A DNA stretch of 40,595 bases from Atribacterota bacterium (GCA_040767965.1 JAXGNR010000014.1:1-40595); one strand, 5' to 3'. Positions 21,576 to 30,344 are shown, counted from the stretch's first letter. Program-made: numbers and translations. Notes: a model not told the origin generated them from the letters alone.

Positions 21576-22679
21576 TTATTCATATTTTTTAAAAGCACCA
21601 AATCTATCCTTCAGTTGAATATAAGCATTTTCACCTTTTCCATTATAAAAAGAATTATAAATTTCAATGCTCTTCTCATCAATGTCAACATCCTGGAACA
21701 ATTCAGGGTAAACTGTTTTACCGACATAATAAGCATTTGCAATCAAGTTTTCCTTGTTATAGGAATACCAGCAATAAGGAAGTACATAATAAACTTCTTT
21801 TTCCTTTACTGCTTTTAATTCGCTAAACGGGCTGGTTTTTAAATCGCTTTCCAAAGTAGAAAGAGAAACAGGAGATATAAATATTATATCTGGATTCCAT
21901 CCAACCAAAGCCTCCTTGTCTACATTTATGCCTGAACTCAAATCAGATAATTCAAAGGCAACATTTTTGACATTAATCAGATTAAAAGGTGGCCATTGTG
22001 GATCTGTACCGGTAATACCATGAGATCCAAAGAAGGCTCTGCCTCCAATATAAGCATTTACTTTATTTACTTCGGAAATACCCTTGGTTCTCTCTTCTAA
22101 ATCAAACGCATAATCTTTTATAATATTAATAAGCTCTGCGGCTTTTTCTTGTTTATTTAGAACTTCTCCAATAATTTCTAAAGAATCAAAAAATAACTTA
22201 TCCTGTCCAGGAGTTCCCACTGGGTTTGTATAGACTGCAACTACCGGGATTTTTGTTTTATTCATTAAATCATCTACCTGTTTTCTGTCACTGGCTCCCA
22301 TAAAAATTACATCTGGTTTTAATTGGATAATTATCTCATGATTAAAACCGCTTCCTCCTACTCCAATATTAACCACCGGTAAATCATATAGTTCCGGGTA
22401 GGCAAGCATATATGGCAAATCTGACCCTTGTGGAACTCCTTTCTCGTCAGTTTCTGATTTCTCCCTGTATTCAATTCCAACCACTTTTTCTGCTACATTG
22501 AAAGCAACAATTTCTCTTAGAGAACTGCCTACTGCTAGAATTCTCTCGACTTTCTTTGGTATTGACACTTCTCTTCCCAATATATCATTTATTATTATCT
22601 CTTCGGCTGACCCAATAATTGACAAGACAGCCAATAAAAAACTTATAAAAATTACTGTTAAAATTTTTTTGCTGAACAT
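21576..22679 (-). CDS. class III (FecB/BtuF-like) metal ABC substrate-binding protein
   Basis: Signal peptide, DILGREVSIPKKVERI, LKPDVIF, WNPDIIF, LPYCWY. Start set to ATG 22679 (RBS GGAGG at 22692-22688). Confidence 0.88.
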   Translation of the reverse strand: MFSKKILTVIFISFLLAVLSIIGSAEEIIINDILGREVSIPKKVERILAVGSSLREIVAFNVAEKVVGIEYREKSETDEKGVPQGSDLPYMLAYPELYDLPVVNIGVGGSGFNHEIIIQLKPDVIFMGASDRKQVDDLMNKTKIPVVAVYTNPVGTPGQDKLFFDSLEIIGEVLNKQEKAAELINIIKDYAFDLEERTKGISEVNKVNAYIGGRAFFGSHGITGTDPQWPPFNLINVKNVAFELSDLSSGINVDKEALVGWNPDIIFISPVSLSTLESDLKTSPFSELKAVKEKEVYYVLPYCWYSYNKENLIANAYYVGKTVYPELFQDVDIDEKSIEIYNSFYNGKGENAYIQLKDRFGAFKKYE

Positions 22680-22704
22680 TACGAAATCCTCCATGTGTTT
22701 AATA

Positions 22705-22753
22705 ATTTAAAAACAGTGTTACTATTTTAATAATTGTAACACTGTTTTTAAAT
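22705..22753. promoter_or_regulatory. 18-bp perfect inverted repeat with core GTGTTAC-N13-GTAACAC (NikR-like operator and/or terminator)
   Basis: ATTTAAAAACAGTGTTAC (22705-22722), 13 nt spacer, GTAACACTGTTTTTAAAT (22736-22753), just upstream of the metal ABC operon. Confidence 0.65.
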
Positions 22754-22813
22754 AAAGCAAGTAATTATGCTGTTAATCATACAAAAACATTATTAGTATT
22801 CTTATAATGTCTT

Positions 22814-24880
22814 TTAAAGCAAATTGTCAACTTTTTCAATACTACACATAAATAATCTATTGGAAGTTGTGCTGGTTATGGAGTCTTTTAAATTATCATC
22901 TGTTAATAAATTCAAGTTATACTTTTCTTCACATTCACCCCATCCCCAGGCTATTCTTATCTTTCCAGGGGCAATAATATCGGTAATATTTGCTTTCATC
23001 TGAATTTGGCCATTAGGTGTAAGTATGTTGATCAAATCATTTTGATTAATATTTCTTTTCTGTGCATCCAGCGGGTTAACATCGGCTGATGGCTCGTCCT
23101 CTTTTTTTCTTAGAAAGTCTATGTGTCGAAATTGTGAATGAACAAAATGATTTGGCCTTTGTCCGCTTAAACCTGTCAAAGGATAGGCTTCTTTTTGTTG
23201 ATAGAAAGAAGGGTTCTGAGATTGAAAATCTTCCCAGAAATCCGGCACAGATCTGTAATTGTATTTTTTTAACAAAGAAGAGTCTATTTCAACTTTACCA
23301 GAAGGTGTTTTAAATCCTTCGATAATATATTTTTGATATCGGGTATCTTCTGAGGTGATTCCTGCTAGATTTTTAATTATATCTTTTGTTTGCAAACCTG
23401 CAGGCAAAAGTTGATCATCAATAGCTTCTTCTACATTTTCCCAAGGGAATTCTTTATTAAAACCTAATCTTTTAGCCATTAAAAATACAATCTCCCAATC
23501 AGGCTTACTTTCACCTACTGGCTCAATTACCTTTTTCTGTAGTCTGACACAATTATTTGAAACTGCATTATTACTAAGCATGGTTTGCTCAAAAGAAAAA
23601 CTTGCCGGTAAAATTATATTTGCTAATTTAGCTGTTTGAGTCATCATCGGATCAATAACAACAACAAATTCAAGCTTTTGCAATGCCTGTCTGACTCTTT
23701 TAATATTAGCCATTGTCACCAAGGGGTTTGCTCCTTGTATAAGGAGTCCTTTTATAGGATATGGCTTTTCTTCAATAATCGAATCTATCAAAGTACCCAG
23801 CACATGGATACCCCTTCTAGTGCTATATTGGCTAAATAGAGGATAATTCTGACTTATAGAAAGAGGGGGCTGGAAAAAAGATTCTCTTAATTGGTAATTT
23901 TTTATCTTTATTGGTTGTGGAATTAAGTCTCCCCCTTTTTTATCCAGATTACCGCTAATAGCTCTTAAAATTGCAATTGCTCTGGTAACCTGGGCCATAT
24001 TGCAATGCATATCAAGCCCATTCCCTTCAGCAATACAAGCAGGGGTATTATTAGCATATAATTGGGCAGCTTCTACTATCTTTTCTTCAGGTAACTGCAC
24101 AATGGCTGCTATTTTCTCTGGGGGATATTTGTCAATATTTTTTTTTAAAGAATCAAAACCAATCGTGTATTCTTCAATAAATTTTCTATCAATCAAATTA
24201 TGTTTTATCAGATAATTAATAAAAGTCATAGCTAAAAATCCATCAGTTCCGGGTTTTATCTGCAGCCAGACATCAGCCATTTCGGCTAATCTGGTTTTTA
24301 CAGGATCAATTACTACTAACTTTGCTCCCTTATTTATTGCATATAATAAGTCTTCAAAGGCTGTGGGATTAGTGTCCTGATCATTTCTTCCCCAACAAAT
24401 AATACAATTGCTATTCTTGTAATCTGGACTGGTCATCTCTCCATAAGTAAAAGTTTGCAAAGCTTCTCTCCCGGCATGGCAAACAGAACCGTTACCAATT
24501 ACATTAGGAGAGCCAAAAGCATGCATCAAGCGCATGGCATAATGCCAATTGCCTCCCCAATCAGGCGCCTGTCCTCTTAACCAGCAGAATGCTTCAGCAC
24601 CATATTTATCTTTAACAATATTCATTTTACTGCAAACCATATCTAATGCATTGTCCCAGGATGTTTCCCCCCATTCACCTTCTTCGTTTTTTACCAAAGG
24701 ATGCACTATTCTCCTGGGAGAATAAATAATCTCTGGAACTGCCTGTAATTTTGGACAATTCTGGTGAATTGCTTCAGAGTATCTTTTGACTCTTTCTGCT
24801 GTTACTATTTTTCCGTTTAGTATTTCCACTTCCACAGGGCAGCATCCTGAACATAATCTGCATATGGTATTTATTCTCAT
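22814..24880 (-). CDS. Mo/W-bis-PGD oxidoreductase (DMSO reductase superfamily), cytoplasmic, substrate unknown
   Basis: N-terminal CRLCSGCC...CPK 4Fe-4S motif; SWDNALD; IDPVKT; KPGTDG; TQTAKLANIILP; FKTPSGKVE; HSQFR; C-terminal molybdopterin-binding domain. No twin-arginine signal. Confidence 0.9.
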   Translation of the reverse strand: MRINTICRLCSGCCPVEVEILNGKIVTAERVKRYSEAIHQNCPKLQAVPEIIYSPRRIVHPLVKNEEGEWGETSWDNALDMVCSKMNIVKDKYGAEAFCWLRGQAPDWGGNWHYAMRLMHAFGSPNVIGNGSVCHAGREALQTFTYGEMTSPDYKNSNCIICWGRNDQDTNPTAFEDLLYAINKGAKLVVIDPVKTRLAEMADVWLQIKPGTDGFLAMTFINYLIKHNLIDRKFIEEYTIGFDSLKKNIDKYPPEKIAAIVQLPEEKIVEAAQLYANNTPACIAEGNGLDMHCNMAQVTRAIAILRAISGNLDKKGGDLIPQPIKIKNYQLRESFFQPPLSISQNYPLFSQYSTRRGIHVLGTLIDSIIEEKPYPIKGLLIQGANPLVTMANIKRVRQALQKLEFVVVIDPMMTQTAKLANIILPASFSFEQTMLSNNAVSNNCVRLQKKVIEPVGESKPDWEIVFLMAKRLGFNKEFPWENVEEAIDDQLLPAGLQTKDIIKNLAGITSEDTRYQKYIIEGFKTPSGKVEIDSSLLKKYNYRSVPDFWEDFQSQNPSFYQQKEAYPLTGLSGQRPNHFVHSQFRHIDFLRKKEDEPSADVNPLDAQKRNINQNDLINILTPNGQIQMKANITDIIAPGKIRIAWGWGECEEKYNLNLLTDDNLKDSITSTTSNRLFMCSIEKVDNLL

Positions 24881-24914
24881 TTTTTACCTCTGTCTCTTTC
24901 CTAAATCTACTTAT

Positions 24915-26876
24915 CTACTTAGCAATATTATATTGCACTGAATTAATATCAGCTGTTTGTTTTTTAATTTTTCTTTGCTGAAGAAATATACCTATAAATA
25001 AAACAATTCCTGCATAGTTTAACCAGCGAAGGGGGAAAAACATACTTAAAGCTGATAATAAAATTAACATGCGATTTATAAAAGATAAATAAGTAAAAAT
25101 ATATCTTTCCCAAAATATAGCAAAAGCCACCAGGCCGCCTAAGATCATGATAGCTGTTTCGAAAATCATCCAGGGGGTTCCCTGTAATAATATTTCCGGG
25201 CGATAATAAAATAAAAAAGGTAATATATAAAGTCCTTTTGAAAATTTAAAAGCAGTAAGCATGGTTTTAACCGGGTCTGCCCCGGCAATGCCTGCCCCTA
25301 CTATCGATGCCAGCCCTACAGGTGGAGTTATCTCAGAGTTAATACTGAACCAGATCATAATCATATGGGCAACAACTAGTGGGAATCCAAGCCCTGTAAG
25401 ACTTGGTCCTGCAGTGATAGCCACAATAATATAAGCAGCGCTACTGGGTAAACCCATTCCTAAAATTGTTGAAATTAAACCTACCAAAAAAATAGCTAAA
25501 AAAGAATTTTCATGGCTTAAACCAGAAAGAAACCAGGATATTTTTAACCCTAATCCTGTTAATCCTACCAGAGAAAGAATAATACCGATACATGGCACAA
25601 GACTGCCGATATTAAGAGAATATCTGCCGCCTGTTACCAAAGAATTATAAATAAAAAGTAAATTAAGAGATCTCTTTTTAATGATATGGGTGATAATTAA
25701 TGTAGTAATACCAAAAAAAGCTGCAAGGCTTGGTGAAAATCCCAATATCATAACTAAAATAATAAAAAATAAAGCGAAAAAATAATACCAGCCTTTTTTT
25801 ATCAAAAAACTCCAATTTTCATCATTATCTTTATCTATTGAACCAATATTTTCTTTTTTGGCTTCTAAATGAACAAAAACAAAAAGAGTTAAATAATACA
25901 AAATAATTGGTAAAGATGCTATAGCTATTATTTTTAAATAAGGTATGCTGGTAAATTCCACCATTATAAAAGCGACTGCACCCATTACCGGTGGCATTAT
26001 CTGTCCTCCGGTAGAGGCAGAAGCTTCAATAGCTGCTGCAACATGGGGCTTATAACCTATTTGCTTCATCATTGGGATAGTAAACACTCCTGTTGAGGAT
26101 ACATTGGCAATAGCACTACCTGATACTGAACCTAATAAAGCGCTGCCTAAAATGGCCGCCTTGGCTGGTCCGCCAGCAGTTTTACCGGTAATTGCAAAAG
26201 CCAGCTTAATAAAAAAATCACCTGCCCCGGTTTTTTCTAAAAATGCTCCAAACAAGATAAAAGGAATTACATATTGAATCATTATCCTGCTTACCATTCC
26301 ATAATAACCTTCCATGCCACAAAAAACCTGACTGACAATGGTCTGAATTGAAAATCCGGCATGCCCAAAACGACCAGGAATGTTATTCCCAAAAAAAGCA
26401 TACACCAAGAGCAACCCCGCTGTAATTGTTAATGTCCAGCCGATAACTCTTCTTCCAATATCTAACCCGATAATAATCATGATAATTCCTATAACGATAT
26501 CAAAATTATTAAGAGAGCTTAAACGGGAAAAACGTTCATAAGGATTATGCATAATATAAAAAGAACCAATTATAATGAAGAATACAAACAAATAATCAAT
26601 GTACAAAGAAATTTTTTTATTGGTTTTCTGAGAAAAAGGATAAATAATAACACACAATATCATTACCAGCATCAAATAAATGGCACGTTGTGCAACCATA
26701 TCAAAAGTAATTACAATAGTCCAGTAAAGGACTAATGCTGACAGAGCTGCCATCATCAAAGAAGTTACTTTAACCCCGAAAGAATTCAAACTTCGTTCTT
26801 GTGGCATTAATCCATCGGAAGAAATAGATTGCTGTTTAAATGAATCACTGTTATCGCCTGGCACGTTAATAGTCAT
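24915..26876 (-). CDS. TAXI-TRAP transporter fused 4TM/12TM permease
   Basis: GGPAKAA, GSVSGSAIANV, IPMMKQIGY, ASTGGQIMPPVMGAVAF, LGMGLPSSAAY, ITPPVGLA. Confidence 0.92.
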   Translation of the reverse strand: MTINVPGDNSDSFKQQSISSDGLMPQERSLNSFGVKVTSLMMAALSALVLYWTIVITFDMVAQRAIYLMLVMILCVIIYPFSQKTNKKISLYIDYLFVFFIIIGSFYIMHNPYERFSRLSSLNNFDIVIGIIMIIIGLDIGRRVIGWTLTITAGLLLVYAFFGNNIPGRFGHAGFSIQTIVSQVFCGMEGYYGMVSRIMIQYVIPFILFGAFLEKTGAGDFFIKLAFAITGKTAGGPAKAAILGSALLGSVSGSAIANVSSTGVFTIPMMKQIGYKPHVAAAIEASASTGGQIMPPVMGAVAFIMVEFTSIPYLKIIAIASLPIILYYLTLFVFVHLEAKKENIGSIDKDNDENWSFLIKKGWYYFFALFFIILVMILGFSPSLAAFFGITTLIITHIIKKRSLNLLFIYNSLVTGGRYSLNIGSLVPCIGIILSLVGLTGLGLKISWFLSGLSHENSFLAIFLVGLISTILGMGLPSSAAYIIVAITAGPSLTGLGFPLVVAHMIMIWFSINSEITPPVGLASIVGAGIAGADPVKTMLTAFKFSKGLYILPFLFYYRPEILLQGTPWMIFETAIMILGGLVAFAIFWERYIFTYLSFINRMLILLSALSMFFPLRWLNYAGIVLFIGIFLQQRKIKKQTADINSVQYNIAK

Positions 26877-26920
26877 GATATTCCTTTCTCGTTTATCTTG
26901 CTTGTTTGTGAAGCAATTTT

Positions 26921-26953
26921 GTCGGCTGCAATACTGTTAAAAAAGCAGCCGAC
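26921..26953 (-). promoter_or_regulatory. intercistronic stem-loop after the TAXI binding-protein gene
   Basis: GTCGGCTGC (26921-26929) and GCAGCCGAC (26945-26953) form a 9 bp perfect inverted repeat. Confidence 0.6.
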
Positions 26954-26969
26954 TTTTTATAAATAGCAT

Positions 26970-27938
26970 TTAATTTATTAATCCCTGCTCCTGGAAGAAT
27001 TTTCTTGCTCCAGGATGCATTGGTATAGGTTCCCATTTTGCTGCATTTTCCAATGAGATCCCTCGACCAGCCGGATGAACTGCAGCCATATGCTTTAATC
27101 CATCTTCGCTATAAAGAGTTTTTACCATTTCATAAACCAGTTCTTCCGGAAGATCTTTATCACAAACCAGCATTGCCGCCATTCCAACCGTTTCAATAGT
27201 TTCATCAATTCCTTTGTAAGTTCCTGCAGGGATATCCATTGCAAGATACTTAGGATTTTCTGCAACCAGCTTATCCCTTAATCCTGGGGCAAATTTTAAT
27301 ATTTGGAAATCATGAGTTAGTGATAATTCAGTGAGACCTGCAGTGGGAATAGCAGCAATTTCCATCACTACATCAACCTGTCCCATTTTGATTGCCTGTA
27401 CTGCAGCATCTGCTGCCAGATAAACTGTTTTTTTGAAATCTTCTTCTGGATTAATCCCATGAAATTCACAAATTTCAAAAAAGATTTTATGCATCGAACC
27501 ACCAGGCGATCCTGCGCAGACAATTTTATCTTTTAAATCCGAATAACTTTCTATCTGACTTTTCTGCAAAGCATATGGTTCAACCCAATTACCAAACAAA
27601 ATGCCCATTCCTCTCATCTGATTGTAAGGGTGATCATAAGGTTCTTCACCCTGGAAAGCTATATAGGCATCTCCTGTGCTTACCAATCCCATATCTGATT
27701 CTCCTCTATCCAGGCGATTTAAGTTCTCATCAACACCTCCTGAAGATACTGCAGTTACATAAAGATCTGGTATGGTTTTAGAAAAATATTCGGCAATTCC
27801 TCCTCCCATAGGATAAAACCCTCCTCCCATGGGCCCGGTAGTAATAGATAATTGAATTTCACTAGCAAAAGCTGTTAAAGTGAAGACAGAAACAAAACTT
27901 AAAACTAAACCTATTAATAATAATCGTTTTTTACTCAT
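26970..27938 (-). CDS. TAXI family TRAP solute-binding protein
   Basis: Signal peptide; ITTGPMGGGFYPMGG, SSGGVDENL, IPAGTYKG and IPMHPGARKFFQE motifs. Confidence 0.92.
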   Translation of the reverse strand: MSKKRLLLIGLVLSFVSVFTLTAFASEIQLSITTGPMGGGFYPMGGGIAEYFSKTIPDLYVTAVSSGGVDENLNRLDRGESDMGLVSTGDAYIAFQGEEPYDHPYNQMRGMGILFGNWVEPYALQKSQIESYSDLKDKIVCAGSPGGSMHKIFFEICEFHGINPEEDFKKTVYLAADAAVQAIKMGQVDVVMEIAAIPTAGLTELSLTHDFQILKFAPGLRDKLVAENPKYLAMDIPAGTYKGIDETIETVGMAAMLVCDKDLPEELVYEMVKTLYSEDGLKHMAAVHPAGRGISLENAAKWEPIPMHPGARKFFQEQGLIN

Positions 27939-28035
27939 AAATATATCCCTCCAATAATTTATTTTTGATAATTTTATTTGTTTTCAATCCAAAATCAGGT
28001 TATGCTTTGTCGACAACCTCCTTTAATTTATAAAT

Positions 28036-28160
28036 AAAAAAAGCTCTTCATGTCTTCCTTTATAAAAAAGGGACGAAGAGCTTGCTTCGCGGTGCCACCC
28101 CGGTTGGATTAATGATTCTAATATCATTCTTTTTTCAATATTTTAATTATTAATCCCTCT
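28036..28160 (-). ncRNA. second (partial) T-box: antiterminator/terminator without Stem I
   Basis: T-box AACCGGGG-TGGCACC-GCG (28105-28088), its complement CGTCCC, terminator AAGCTCTTC...GAAGAGCTT plus U run (28083-28036), and a Stem III-like GGATTAAT...ATTAATCC. Confidence 0.88.
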
Positions 28161-28195
28161 TACTGAAATACAGGTATATTACTTAGTAGAACTGA

Positions 28196-28485
28196 ATAAA
28201 ATAAAAAATCCTCTCATCTGTTAGAGACGAAAGGAATCCGTGTTGCCACTCTTATTCTAGAACATAATTGTTCCACTCAACAGAATACTGGTAAAATTTT
28301 TTATTATGCTTTTAATATACCGATATTCTTTCCTTTTTTACGGGGGAAAACCGTCAGCACTTACTTTTTTGTTTCAGGCTGAAACTCCTGGGACCATTTA
28401 GCAATTCAGTTCTTTGCCACATCCCACCAACCGTGGCTCTCTTAAAAGTAAAACAGAATTGTTATTTAACCCAATCATGGTCTTT
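28196..28485 (-). ncRNA. complete T-box riboswitch, probable Trp (UGG) specifier
   Basis: Stem I with GA motif (ATGA...GGA), AGAG bulge, GGTGGGA loop and specifier loop CTAAATGGT (28401-28393); Stem II AGTA; T-box AATAAGAG-TGGCAAC-ACGG (28256-28238); terminator CCTTTCGTCT...AGATGAGAGG plus U run. Confidence 0.9.
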
Positions 28486-28504
28486 TGAATCTTAAATTGT
28501 ATTG

Positions 28505-28533
28505 ATTATAGTTATAATTTTGAAATTAGTCAA
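28505..28533 (-). promoter_or_regulatory. sigma70 promoter driving the T-box leader
   Basis: TTGACT (28533-28528), 17 nt spacer, TATAAT (28510-28505), just upstream of Stem I. Confidence 0.8.
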
Positions 28534-28589
28534 ATATTTTAAAAAATTATTTTTATATTTACTGTATTTATATTATTTATCAGCATGTG

Positions 28590-30344
28590 CTATTTGCCGT
28601 TCACAGATCCATTAACCCAGTCAGGCATAAAACCTTTAAACTGAGATTGGTAAAGTTTTGTATATAATTTTTTTTGAGCTATCAGTTCATTATGAGTTCC
28701 TTTTTCAACTATTCCTTGATTTGTAAGCACTATTATTTGATCGGCATTCCGAATAGTAGAAAGTCTATGGGCAATTACTAATACTGTTCTGCCAATAGTA
28801 AGCTTTTCTAATGCTTTTTGGATTATTGCTTCTGATTCCGCATCTAAAGAAGAAGTGGCCTCATCAAGGATTAAAATAGGAGGATTTTTTAAAAATGCTC
28901 TTGCTAATGATATTCTCTGTTTTTGTCCACCCGAAAGCTTTAAACCTTTTTCCCCAATATAAGTCTCATAACCATCAGTCAGGCTATTAATAAAATCATG
29001 AATATTAGCATCTATAGCAGCCTTGATAACCTCTTCTTTAGAAGCATCCGGTTTCCCGTATAGTATATTTTCTCCAATAGTTCCGGTAAATAGAAAAACA
29101 TCCTGCTGCACTAACCCAATGTTTCTTCTTAAAGAATTTAAACTAACATCTTTAATGTTTATGCCATCAATCAGAATTTCACCGCTATTTACTTCATAAA
29201 ATCTTGGAATTAAATGGCATAAAGTAGTCTTCCCTGCTCCCGAAGGTCCTACTAAAGCAAGGGTTCTGCCTGATTCTATTACCAGATTTATATTTGACAA
29301 TACAATCTCTTCTTTTTTATAGCTAAATGATACATCTCTAAACTCTACCTTGCCTTTTATCTTGGCTAATTCCAGAGCATTTTCTTTATCTGTAATAGAT
29401 GGTTTAATCGTCATAATTTCTACAAATCTTTCAAAGCCACTGATTCCTTCCTGCAACTGTTCGGTAAAATTTGTCAGCCGGCGGATAGGCTGTAAGAAAA
29501 AACTGATATATAAAAGATAAGCTACCAGATCTCCGATGTTTATGATATTTTTAAATACAAAAAATCCACCTAATCCTAAAGCAACAATATTTAAAAAATT
29601 AGTCAGGAACATAATAGTTGAAAAGAATTCTGCCATTACCTTGTAAGACATTTCCCTGGATTCATTAAATTTTTGATTGCCAAGGTCAAACTTTTCCATT
29701 TCAAATTCCTCATTGGTAAATGCTTTGGACACCCTTATACCGGAAATACTATTTTCCAGTTGAGCATTAACATTGGCAATTTTTTTCCTGACTAACCTGA
29801 AAACCTCAGTCATTTTCTTTCTTTTATTTATTGCATAAAAAAGTAGTATTACTAAAAATCCATATAATATTAAAGTAAGTCGCCATTCAATGCGGAAAAG
29901 TATAATAAATGAACCTATTATCATTACTAATGATAAAAATATATCTTCAGGTCCATGATGAGCAAGACCAGCAATTTTGCTAATGTCATTTACCACCCGG
30001 GACATAATATGTCCTGTTTTGACACTATCAAAATAATCAACTGATAACGCCTGTAGATGCCGAAAAAGATCTGTTCTCATATCTCTTTCCATCCTGGCCC
30101 CCATAGCATGTCCCCAGTAATTTACTATATACTGAGCTACTGCACGCACTATAGAAAGAATTACTAAAATCCCTATGTATGTATAAAAAAGTCTGAACTG
30201 ATTGTTGGGAATAATCTGATTAATAAAACTTCTTGTAACCGAGGGAAAAGCCAGATCAACTGCAGCAATTATTGTTGCAGAAGCTAAATCTAAAAACAGT
30301 ATTCCCTTGTAAGGCTTATAATAATGAACAAATCTCTTAAACAT
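28590..30344 (-). CDS. ABC exporter, fused permease/ATPase (MdlB/MsbA-like)
   Basis: N-terminal TMD; GPSGAGKTT, LSGGQKQRISLARA, LILDEATSSLD, IAHRLST. Confidence 0.92.
   Translation of the reverse strand: MFKRFVHYYKPYKGILFLDLASATIIAAVDLAFPSVTRSFINQIIPNNQFRLFYTYIGILVILSIVRAVAQYIVNYWGHAMGARMERDMRTDLFRHLQALSVDYFDSVKTGHIMSRVVNDISKIAGLAHHGPEDIFLSLVMIIGSFIILFRIEWRLTLILYGFLVILLFYAINKRKKMTEVFRLVRKKIANVNAQLENSISGIRVSKAFTNEEFEMEKFDLGNQKFNESREMSYKVMAEFFSTIMFLTNFLNIVALGLGGFFVFKNIINIGDLVAYLLYISFFLQPIRRLTNFTEQLQEGISGFERFVEIMTIKPSITDKENALELAKIKGKVEFRDVSFSYKKEEIVLSNINLVIESGRTLALVGPSGAGKTTLCHLIPRFYEVNSGEILIDGINIKDVSLNSLRRNIGLVQQDVFLFTGTIGENILYGKPDASKEEVIKAAIDANIHDFINSLTDGYETYIGEKGLKLSGGQKQRISLARAFLKNPPILILDEATSSLDAESEAIIQKALEKLTIGRTVLVIAHRLSTIRNADQIIVLTNQGIVEKGTHNELIAQKKLYTKLYQSQFKGFMPDWVNGSVNGK

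Follow-up and report, generated by a model that had tools for sequence, protein, structure and literature searches.

A T-box leader for tryptophan ahead of a TAXI-TRAP transporter and a molybdenum/tungsten enzyme family in Atribacterota: a probable tryptophan salvage module

Why should a riboswitch that gauges the supply of a single amino acid precede a solute importer and a molybdenum or tungsten enzyme? The question is raised by an operon on the minus strand (28533 to 22814) of a 40,595-nt stretch of DNA from an Atribacterota bacterium, referred to as the window, the corresponding genome being labelled G000. A leader of about 560 nt, measured from the -10 hexamer to the first start codon, carries T-box elements and is followed by genes for a TAXI-family solute-binding protein of the tripartite ATP-independent periplasmic (TRAP) type, a fused TRAP permease and a cytoplasmic Mo/W-bis-pyranopterin enzyme, the gaps measuring 93 nt between TAXI and permease genes and 34 nt between permease and enzyme genes. 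The original prediction had described this layout, with which coordinates and profile matches agree, and had proposed that the cell imports a derivative of either tryptophan (Trp) or methionine (Met) and converts it back. Import and conversion are supported by the conserved linkage of T-box and genes and by the context of a second branch of the family; Met derivatives have to be discarded as substrates. Comparative analyses make it probable that the module is a Trp salvage route, which would be switched on by Trp starvation.

The amino acid sensed by the leader

The T-box is the sole Rfam family found above threshold across the window. The match at 28487..28220 covers model positions 1-219 of RF00230 and, as anticipated, exceeds the gathering score (105.2 bits against 93, E 2.2e-22). 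In the Rfam alignment UGG occupies the codon position within the specifier loop, and this triplet is invariant in the five orthologous leaders that could be aligned. The UGGC bulge, found in both antiterminators of the leader, requires a tRNA with G73. The tRNA-Trp(CCA) encoded by the genome has a G-CCA 3' end (G73), and the three tRNA-Met genes all end in A-CCA (A73). The leader is moreover paralogous to that of the trpEGDCFBA operon of G000 (C9:94758-101382), which features the specifier region GAA-A-UGG-A, the UGGC bulge and an additional half T-box, and has in common with the window leader a stretch of 38 nt with 3 differences. In related genomes, leaders of the same type are located ahead of a stand-alone TrpB2. 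Given the invariance of UGG, the match to G73, the paralogy to the trp operon leader and the TrpB2 leaders, the predicted specifier is Trp, not Met.

Of the two amino acids initially considered, only Trp thus stands. Met owed its candidacy to an AUG which overlaps UGG in the window loop (AAAUGGU) and has a purine next to it, and salvage of Met, for example from methionine sulfoxide via a BisC-like reductase, had been envisaged. This possibility is virtually eliminated, because the AUG is abolished in the leader of G019 (AAGUGGU), and the codon position in the Rfam alignment, the G73 required by the bulge and the kinship with the trp operon leader all speak for Trp. The methionine sulfoxide reaction falls along with Met, and the bisC_fam model matches the enzyme in three fragments with 178 bits, the cut-off being 1018, so that a BisC-type S/N-oxide reductase has been rejected as the identity of the enzyme. 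BisC/MtsZ-type proteins are cytoplasmic reductases of free methionine sulfoxide belonging to the dimethyl sulfoxide reductase family. They regenerate an amino acid from its oxidised form, and in this sense are a conceptual analogue of the salvage proposed here, but the window enzyme belongs to another subfamily, has an Fe-S domain, and is associated with the sensing of Trp instead of Met.

More than one T-box riboswitch had been announced in the leader. One is complete; the second element, detected at 28170..28069 by a relaxed search of the interval 27800-28700 (30 bits, E 1.2e-4), matches model positions 147-216 only and lacks Stem I. Each of the two terminator stems overlaps the 3' strand of its own antiterminator and is followed by a U tract, and terminator and antiterminator folds are therefore mutually exclusive at both sites. 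The half T-box has been found in register in nine related leaders, as well as in the leader of the G000 trp operon (C9:94609-94687). Such units consist of Stem III, an antiterminator with the UGGC bulge and a terminator of their own, have neither Stem I nor specifier, and reside in the window, in the G000 trp leader, in the TrpB2 leaders of relatives, and at L118-L121, L127, L128, L136 and L148. The half T-box might make use of the tRNA that is bound to Stem I of the preceding element, and an antiterminator devoid of Stem I poses the mechanistic question of how a T-box functions without a specifier. The complete T-box of the G000 trp operon (C9:94325-94563) is peculiar in another respect, as its Stem I is much shortened, has no AG bulge or distal loop, and the specifier loop closes almost directly; Stem I of the window T-box is full.

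Trp T-box leaders of trp operons and trpS, tandem T-boxes included, have reportedly been described in Gram-positive bacteria by Gutierrez-Preciado and co-workers and by Vitreschak and co-workers. The UGG specifier, the pairing of UGGC with G73, the terminator/antiterminator switch and the presence of two attenuators in series are traits common to those leaders and to the one described here. The latter differs because its second unit lacks Stem I and specifier, because the host is a probable member of Atribacterota, and because the genes downstream encode a TAXI-TRAP importer and an enzyme of the Mo/W type; synthetase genes, biosynthetic genes and genes for known Trp transporters are not among its targets.

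The near-consensus promoter claimed upstream of the leader has been confirmed. Promoter-like sites in the interval 22500-28700 are as many as expected from shuffled sequences (26 against 25.6), hence only the quality and the position of the TTGACT-17-TATAAT site at 28533..28505, the top-scoring one of the 26, carry weight. In agreement with the prediction that the operon has no independent promoter past the leader, a consensus-promoter scan of the coding strand found no promoter-like site in the interval from terminator 2 to the start codon of TAXI. In the mechanism which these features suggest, uncharged tRNA-Trp would be the signal, recognised through pairing of its anticodon with the specifier UGG and of the G73-CCA terminus with the UGGC bulge. 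The two terminators would be overridden in turn, the first by the complete T-box, the second by the antiterminator lacking Stem I, and readthrough transcripts would reach the genes for the TAXI binding protein, the fused TRAP permease and the cytoplasmic [4Fe-4S] Mo/W-bis-pyranopterin enzyme. The transporter would import an organic anion bearing an aromatic group, probably indole. The enzyme would convert it in one step to Trp, or to indole-3-pyruvate, to be processed by an aminotransferase, or else to indole, to be used by TrpB or TrpB2. The features of the operon are listed in Table 1.

Table 1. Features of the operon in the window (coordinates from the first letter of the stretch)
Feature	Position	Strand	Basis
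Sigma-70-type promoter, TTGACT-17 nt-TATAAT	28505..28533	-	11/12 consensus matches
Complete T-box leader, specifier UGG in loop UAA-A-UGG-U, bulge UGGC	28220..28487	-	RF00230
Terminator 1, 11-bp stem and U tract, overlapping the 3' half of antiterminator 1	28199..28235	-	-20.2 kcal/mol, z -4.1
Second T-box element, Stem III and antiterminator with GGGUGGCACCGCG, without Stem I	28069..28170	-	Relaxed RF00230
Terminator 2, 11-bp outer stem and inner helix, then U7	28032..28083	-	-23.8 kcal/mol, z -2.4
TAXI-family TRAP solute-binding protein, 322 aa, Sec signal peptide	26970..27938	-	TIGR02122
Fused DctQ-DctM TRAP permease, 653 aa	24915..26876	-	TIGR02123
Cytoplasmic [4Fe-4S] Mo/W-bis-pyranopterin enzyme, 688 aa, predicted metal ligand Cys134	22814..24880	-	Pfam domains, alignments

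The enzyme family and its gene contexts

The linkage of T-box, transporter and enzyme has been monitored in G000 and 60 related genomes, enzymes with at least 53% identity being regarded as orthologues. Orthologues occur in 8 of the 61 genomes, that is in 5 of 22 members of the family of the window (G000 included), in 3 of 30 members of a sister family, and in none of 9 genomes of other families, and the enzyme is therefore accessory. A T-box precedes the TAXI gene at all 13 loci encoding enzymes 54-100% identical to that of the window, wherever upstream DNA has been assembled. The 13 loci are the window, those of G005, G013, G019, G025, G034 and G043, and six metagenome contigs; G012, cut within the permease gene, and three contigs beginning inside the TAXI gene were left out of the count. 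As L119/L127, L121/L128 and L118/L148/L206 are near-duplicates, the loci amount to about nine distinct sequences from two families, which probably belong to one order of Atribacterota.

The enzyme has at least 1154 relatives at E 0.001 or better among 7999 candidates scored. Eighty metagenome loci, 13 genome loci and the window have been classified by gene context; the counts below refer to metagenome loci first. In branch A (54-100% identity, 9 loci) the order is T-box, TAXI, permease, enzyme. In branch B (52-53%, 3 loci plus G034:C93) an IclR regulator is followed by TAXI, enzyme, permease, a HisC-family aminotransferase (TIGR01141, 350 bits against a cut-off of 277), IorA (640 bits against 651) and IorB, the enzyme gene being located between those for the binding protein and the permease. 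Branch B operons have been found at L146:1225-10208, L144, L143 and L122, in contigs of low G+C content and in G034, which thus hosts two paralogous modules, the T-box version and the branch B version. In branch C (48-54%, 8 loci plus L016) the enzyme gene adjoins one for a UbiD decarboxylase, nearest to the hydroxyarylic-acid decarboxylase VdcC, and genes for TAXI, permease and a SdhA/TfrA/NadB-like flavoprotein lie nearby. In branch D (45-52%, 47 loci plus 4 Desulfobacterota genome loci) a SAM methyltransferase fused to Trm112 is encoded directly upstream of the enzyme, and its best model is the OvoA C-terminal 4-mercaptohistidine N1-methyltransferase domain (90 bits, below the cut-off of 170). 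Branch D members come from Desulfobacterota and many sediment contigs, L017, L018 (L018:7052-10061), L019 and L040 being examples; by analogy with the ergothioneine synthase MES (see below), the pair could provide an oxygen-independent route to an ovothiol-like thiohistidine. Twelve metagenome loci were too short to be assigned. Three branches of the family thus have TAXI and permease genes in company with that of the enzyme. No TAXI neighbour was detected by tblastn at 75 loci of more distant homologues (25-36% identity); five of these loci show a loose T-box motif, which was not placed ahead of the enzyme gene. The expectation that pairs of TAXI and enzyme genes elsewhere would be placed behind T-boxes holds for branch A, and fails for branches B and C, since searches with Rfam at a relaxed threshold found no T-box or other riboswitch in six B and C loci, nor in the unassigned locus L154.

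The regulator, aminotransferase and IorAB genes of branch B, as well as the UbiD and SdhA/TfrA-like flavoprotein genes of branch C, look catabolic, and the T-box is missing from most of the family. Taken at face value, these data would suit a catabolic or respiratory module, in which an aromatic acid is used as carbon source or electron acceptor, and the T-box is a secondary recruitment unrelated to salvage. Such a scenario is distinctly improbable. A T-box on only in the presence of uncharged tRNA-Trp would be senseless for catabolism, is kept at every branch A locus with upstream DNA, in two families, and has paralogues ahead of the trp operon and TrpB2. According to the salvage hypothesis, the aminotransferase and indolepyruvate:ferredoxin oxidoreductase (IOR) genes of branch B are what is expected if the product is an aromatic amino acid or 2-oxo acid, and such a context agrees with an aromatic compound, probably an indole, being taken up and converted.

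As to the enzyme itself, its Pfam domains are Molybdopterin, Molydop_binding and Molybdop_Fe4S4, and only these three. The cluster motif C7-x2-C10-x3-C14...C42 opens the N-terminus, and a twin-arginine leader is missing; the Fe-S motif starting at residue 7 and the lack of such a leader place the protein in the cytoplasm, as had been foreseen. Residues C7, C10, C14, C42, Lys44 and C134 are invariant in all 13 aligned family proteins, and Cys134 aligns with the tungsten-ligand Cys of acetylene hydratase (2e7z). Domains, the four-Cys Fe4S4 site and a predicted protein ligand to the metal mark the enzyme as a member of the Mo/W-bis-pyranopterin superfamily. Whether it could be a known enzyme in disguise, i.e. 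an ordinary acetylene hydratase, formate dehydrogenase (FDH) or polysulfide/thiosulfate reductase, has been evaluated. The best matches in the Protein Data Bank are precisely acetylene hydratase (E 3.6e-80, the match to 2e7z spanning residues 4-646), a PsrA/PhsA-type reductase (1.1e-62) and FdhF (3.5e-60), and the metal-ligand Cys is followed by a His (Cys134-His135), as in formate dehydrogenases. The acetylene hydratase of Syntrophotalea (Pelobacter) acetylenica also resides in the cytoplasm and stands alone, and it shares the N-terminal [4Fe-4S] motif and the Cys ligand to the metal. Yet none of these identities is tenable, and the hypothesis is very unlikely. In acetylene hydratase Asp13 is catalytic, and Ile14, Ile113, Ile142, Trp179, Trp293 and Trp472 form the hydrophobic ring around acetylene. 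Asp13 corresponds to Ser11, invariant across the family, and the six ring positions correspond to Gly, Ala, His, a gap, Glu and Ala, respectively, so that none of them is kept. Because of these changes, the predicted active site is different from that of acetylene hydratase, and more polar. The enzyme scores above the cut-off of no curated model, the best ones being the FDH alpha subunit (TIGR01591, 317 bits against 666) and PhsA (306 against 694), and it has been rejected as an FDH alpha/FdhF protein. The catalytic Arg of the FDH motif is presumably absent. Tat signals are missing, and no gene for a partner subunit is found beside the enzyme gene in the operon. Twenty-four positions are occupied by class-specific residues, as position 292 (H, N, H and Q in branches A, B, C and D), and carry no readable signal on the substrate; matches in the ESM Atlas have generic names alone, such as 'acetylene hydratase family'.

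[quoted passage not shown] Its acetylene-hydratase-like module performs reversible sulfur transfer at the imidazole C2 of trimethylhistidine, a precedent within the clade for reactions on the heterocycle of an amino acid. A cysteine desulfurase is fused at the C-terminus, and MES is encoded together with an EgtD-type histidine N-alpha-methyltransferase. Compared by description only, the MES module and the window enzyme seem alike in the metallopterin, the four N-terminal Cys and the Cys ligand (PMC9516567). The enzyme differs from MES in size (688 aa), in lacking the desulfurase domain, and in being associated with a transporter behind a Trp T-box. With three molybdoenzyme domains only, and no methyltransferase gene in the operon, it has been rejected as a MES.

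The imported compound and the product

Both components of the transporter score above NCBIfam cut-offs, the TAXI protein with TIGR02122 (223 bits against 84), the fused DctQM permease with TIGR02123 (563 against 321). The nearest named relative of the TAXI protein, 83% identical, is from Atribacterota, and the nearest solved structure is 1us4 (E 1.4e-36). TtGluBP (1us4) and VcGluP (PMC11574862) belong to the same TAXI fold family (E 1e-36 to 1e-32), and these closest solved proteins bind amino acids, namely Glu/Gln. Residue E125 of VcGluP, which contacts the amino group of the ligand according to the same text (PMC11574862), corresponds to E120 in the window protein. Compared with VcGluP as described there, the ligand site exhibits the changes Y45F, S75V, Q93S, H123W, G156S, D157M and Y200E, which include the two residues weighing most in the binding of amino acids (Y45 and Q93, replaced by F41 and S87). 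The pocket becomes more hydrophobic and aromatic, and for this reason the predicted ligand is not glutamate. Judged by the alignment, the site appears to be hydrophobic and aromatic in character and to include one or two groups that are acidic or amides.

Among 19 TAXI proteins from branches A to C, 18 carry the same residue at 10 of the 13 positions lining the ligand in VcGluP. The predicted site of the three branches (F41, Y42, V69, S/N87, W118, E/Q120, S148, M149, E193 and I194) retains only one of the 8 side-chain positions of the VcGluP glutamate site, the other 7 being different. Because of the near-identity among the branches, it is probable that all three import one compound, or closely similar ones.

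Could the transported compound be Trp itself, the molybdoenzyme playing a separate role outside the Trp pool? T-box-controlled importers usually carry the very amino acid that is sensed, and the five carriers that seem Trp auxotrophs (see below) would gain from such an importer. The binding of Glu/Gln by the closest solved TAXI proteins (PMC11574862), and the alignment of E120 with the residue holding the amino group in VcGluP, point in the same direction. The hypothesis is nonetheless unlikely. The enzyme gene stays with TAXI and permease genes in three branches, and in branch B is inserted between them; an enzyme placed beside aminotransferase and IOR genes would be needless; the key residues for amino acid binding, again with reference to VcGluP, are changed; and E120 is replaced by Q in 6 of 11 branch A proteins.

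The salvage hypothesis finds a rationale in the Trp supply of the carriers. Missing biosynthetic genes had been listed among the features to look for. G000 contains the entire trp operon, but searches at E 1e-40 or better failed to find trpE and trpB1 in five of the eight carriers, i.e. G013, G005, G019, G043 and G025, which are 96, 85, 91, 82 and 93% complete, respectively. The two genes mark opposite ends of one operon, and a genome without the one would tend to be without the other; even so, it is unlikely that assembly gaps removed them independently in five genomes. In the family of the window, trpE and trpB1 were seen in just 2 of 21 other genomes. Salvage at the level of anthranilate is thereby ruled out for the five carriers and, since they show neither gene, the product would be Trp itself, indolepyruvate or indole. 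Indole remains among the candidates because in four of the five carriers a TrpB2 (452-454 aa) is encoded behind a Trp T-box and half T-box of its own. These loci are L234:524-1882 (G019), L235, L236 and L237; in G043, a further Trp-like T-box (L218) runs off the contig end. Indolepyruvate may be turned into Trp by G000, which encodes aminotransferases and an IclR-IorAB-aminotransferase cluster. Neither the apparent lack of the trp operon in most carriers, which have a TrpB2 under a Trp T-box, nor the three other conserved contexts of the family, had been foreseen.

If Trp salvage takes place, several reactions may be envisaged. Reductive removal of a heteroatom (oxygen or sulfur), bound to the ring or to nitrogen, from a modified Trp (2-oxindolylalanine, hydroxy- or N-oxy-Trp) is tentatively placed first, by analogy with the oxygen- and sulfur-atom transfers of the superfamily and with MES. 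Oxidation of indole-3-lactate to indolepyruvate, for which a molybdenum 2-hydroxycarboxylate-viologen oxidoreductase reportedly present in Proteus vulgaris would be a precedent, is a possible alternative, release of indole from an indole carboxylate an improbable one, and the remainder belongs to some reaction not yet thought of. A broader and more speculative proposal, doubtful at present, is that the protein is a novel Trp-forming, ferredoxin-linked metallopterin enzyme, able to strip oxygen or sulfur from the indole ring of imported damaged or modified Trp. The conversion of 2-oxindolylalanine to Trp would be an example, mirroring the C2 sulfur transfer on trimethylhistidine by MES. In this view, all members of the family would transfer heteroatoms to or from the heterocyclic rings of aromatic amino acids, including the branch with the OvoA-like methyltransferase, common in sulfate reducers, and the half T-box would reuse the bound tRNA.

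Several observations weigh against Trp salvage. The base following the specifier is U in the window (U in three and A in two of the five aligned leaders), and a purine is usual at this position in T-boxes. Orthologues of the enzyme have been found in only 8 of the 61 genomes, and in G000 the system cannot be essential, as the trp operon is complete. TrpB2 is present in 37 of the 60 relatives irrespective of the operon, and missing in G000; indole is therefore not tied to this system, and the data suggest that indole salvage is the usual source of Trp in the lineage. Control by an amino acid is limited to branch A, as branches B and C lack a T-box. So does L154 (48% identity, 61% G+C), where TAXI, permease and enzyme genes are associated and which fits no branch. 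The hydroxyarylic-acid-type UbiD of branch C and the methyltransferase of branch D are no obvious pointers to Trp. The family exceeds no curated cut-off, and its chemistry rests on analogy; ligand, activity and regulation have all been deduced from sequence.

Surroundings of the operon and significance of the linkage

Genes encoding a BtuF/FecB-type binding protein, a FecCD permease and an ABC ATPase (22694-19629, minus strand) start 119 nt past the enzyme gene, with no terminator-like site in between. The same genes are found downstream of the enzyme gene in G005 and G013, and not in G019, and because of this absence probably do not belong to the module. A cobalamin riboswitch (81 bits) is located downstream of that ABC transporter in G005 (L118:3566-3741, minus strand), and no match to this riboswitch was found by Rfam in the window. 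Outside the window, a T-box (72 bits, G000:C5:280812-281107, plus strand) precedes a LeuS-like gene, and hosts in its apparent Stem III loop a complete tRNA-Ala(GGC) gene (C5:280987-281062), bordered by GUAGAU...AUCUAC.

Three contigs of metatranscriptome X19, at least 99% identical to the window, cover the T-box and the 5' part of the TAXI gene (28242-28402 and 27511-27888). Contigs of RNA runs give no level, strand or ends, DNA carry-over is possible, and regulation cannot be read from them. The other three putative RNA runs matching the window are probably DNA. Runs containing at least half of the sampled words of the stretch are labelled as landfill (3), anaerobic digester (1) and soil (1).

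Neither a T-box-controlled TAXI-TRAP transporter nor a T-box-controlled molybdoenzyme was found in the published literature, most subscription journals lying outside the search. Both the regulatory device and the class of transporter are familiar; the enzymes under their control form an uncharacterised family. Membership of a T-box regulon ranks with the most reliable indications of a gene's role in amino acid supply, and in this case it assigns a role in Trp supply to a large family of Mo/W-pterin enzymes, providing a short list of substrates for an orphan TAXI transporter and an orphan metalloenzyme. The conserved pairing of a T-box with an importer and an enzyme points to an undescribed anaerobic way of acquiring Trp from an imported compound, and suggests how bacteria of an uncultured and widespread phylum of anaerobes, apparently auxotrophic for Trp, cover their needs.

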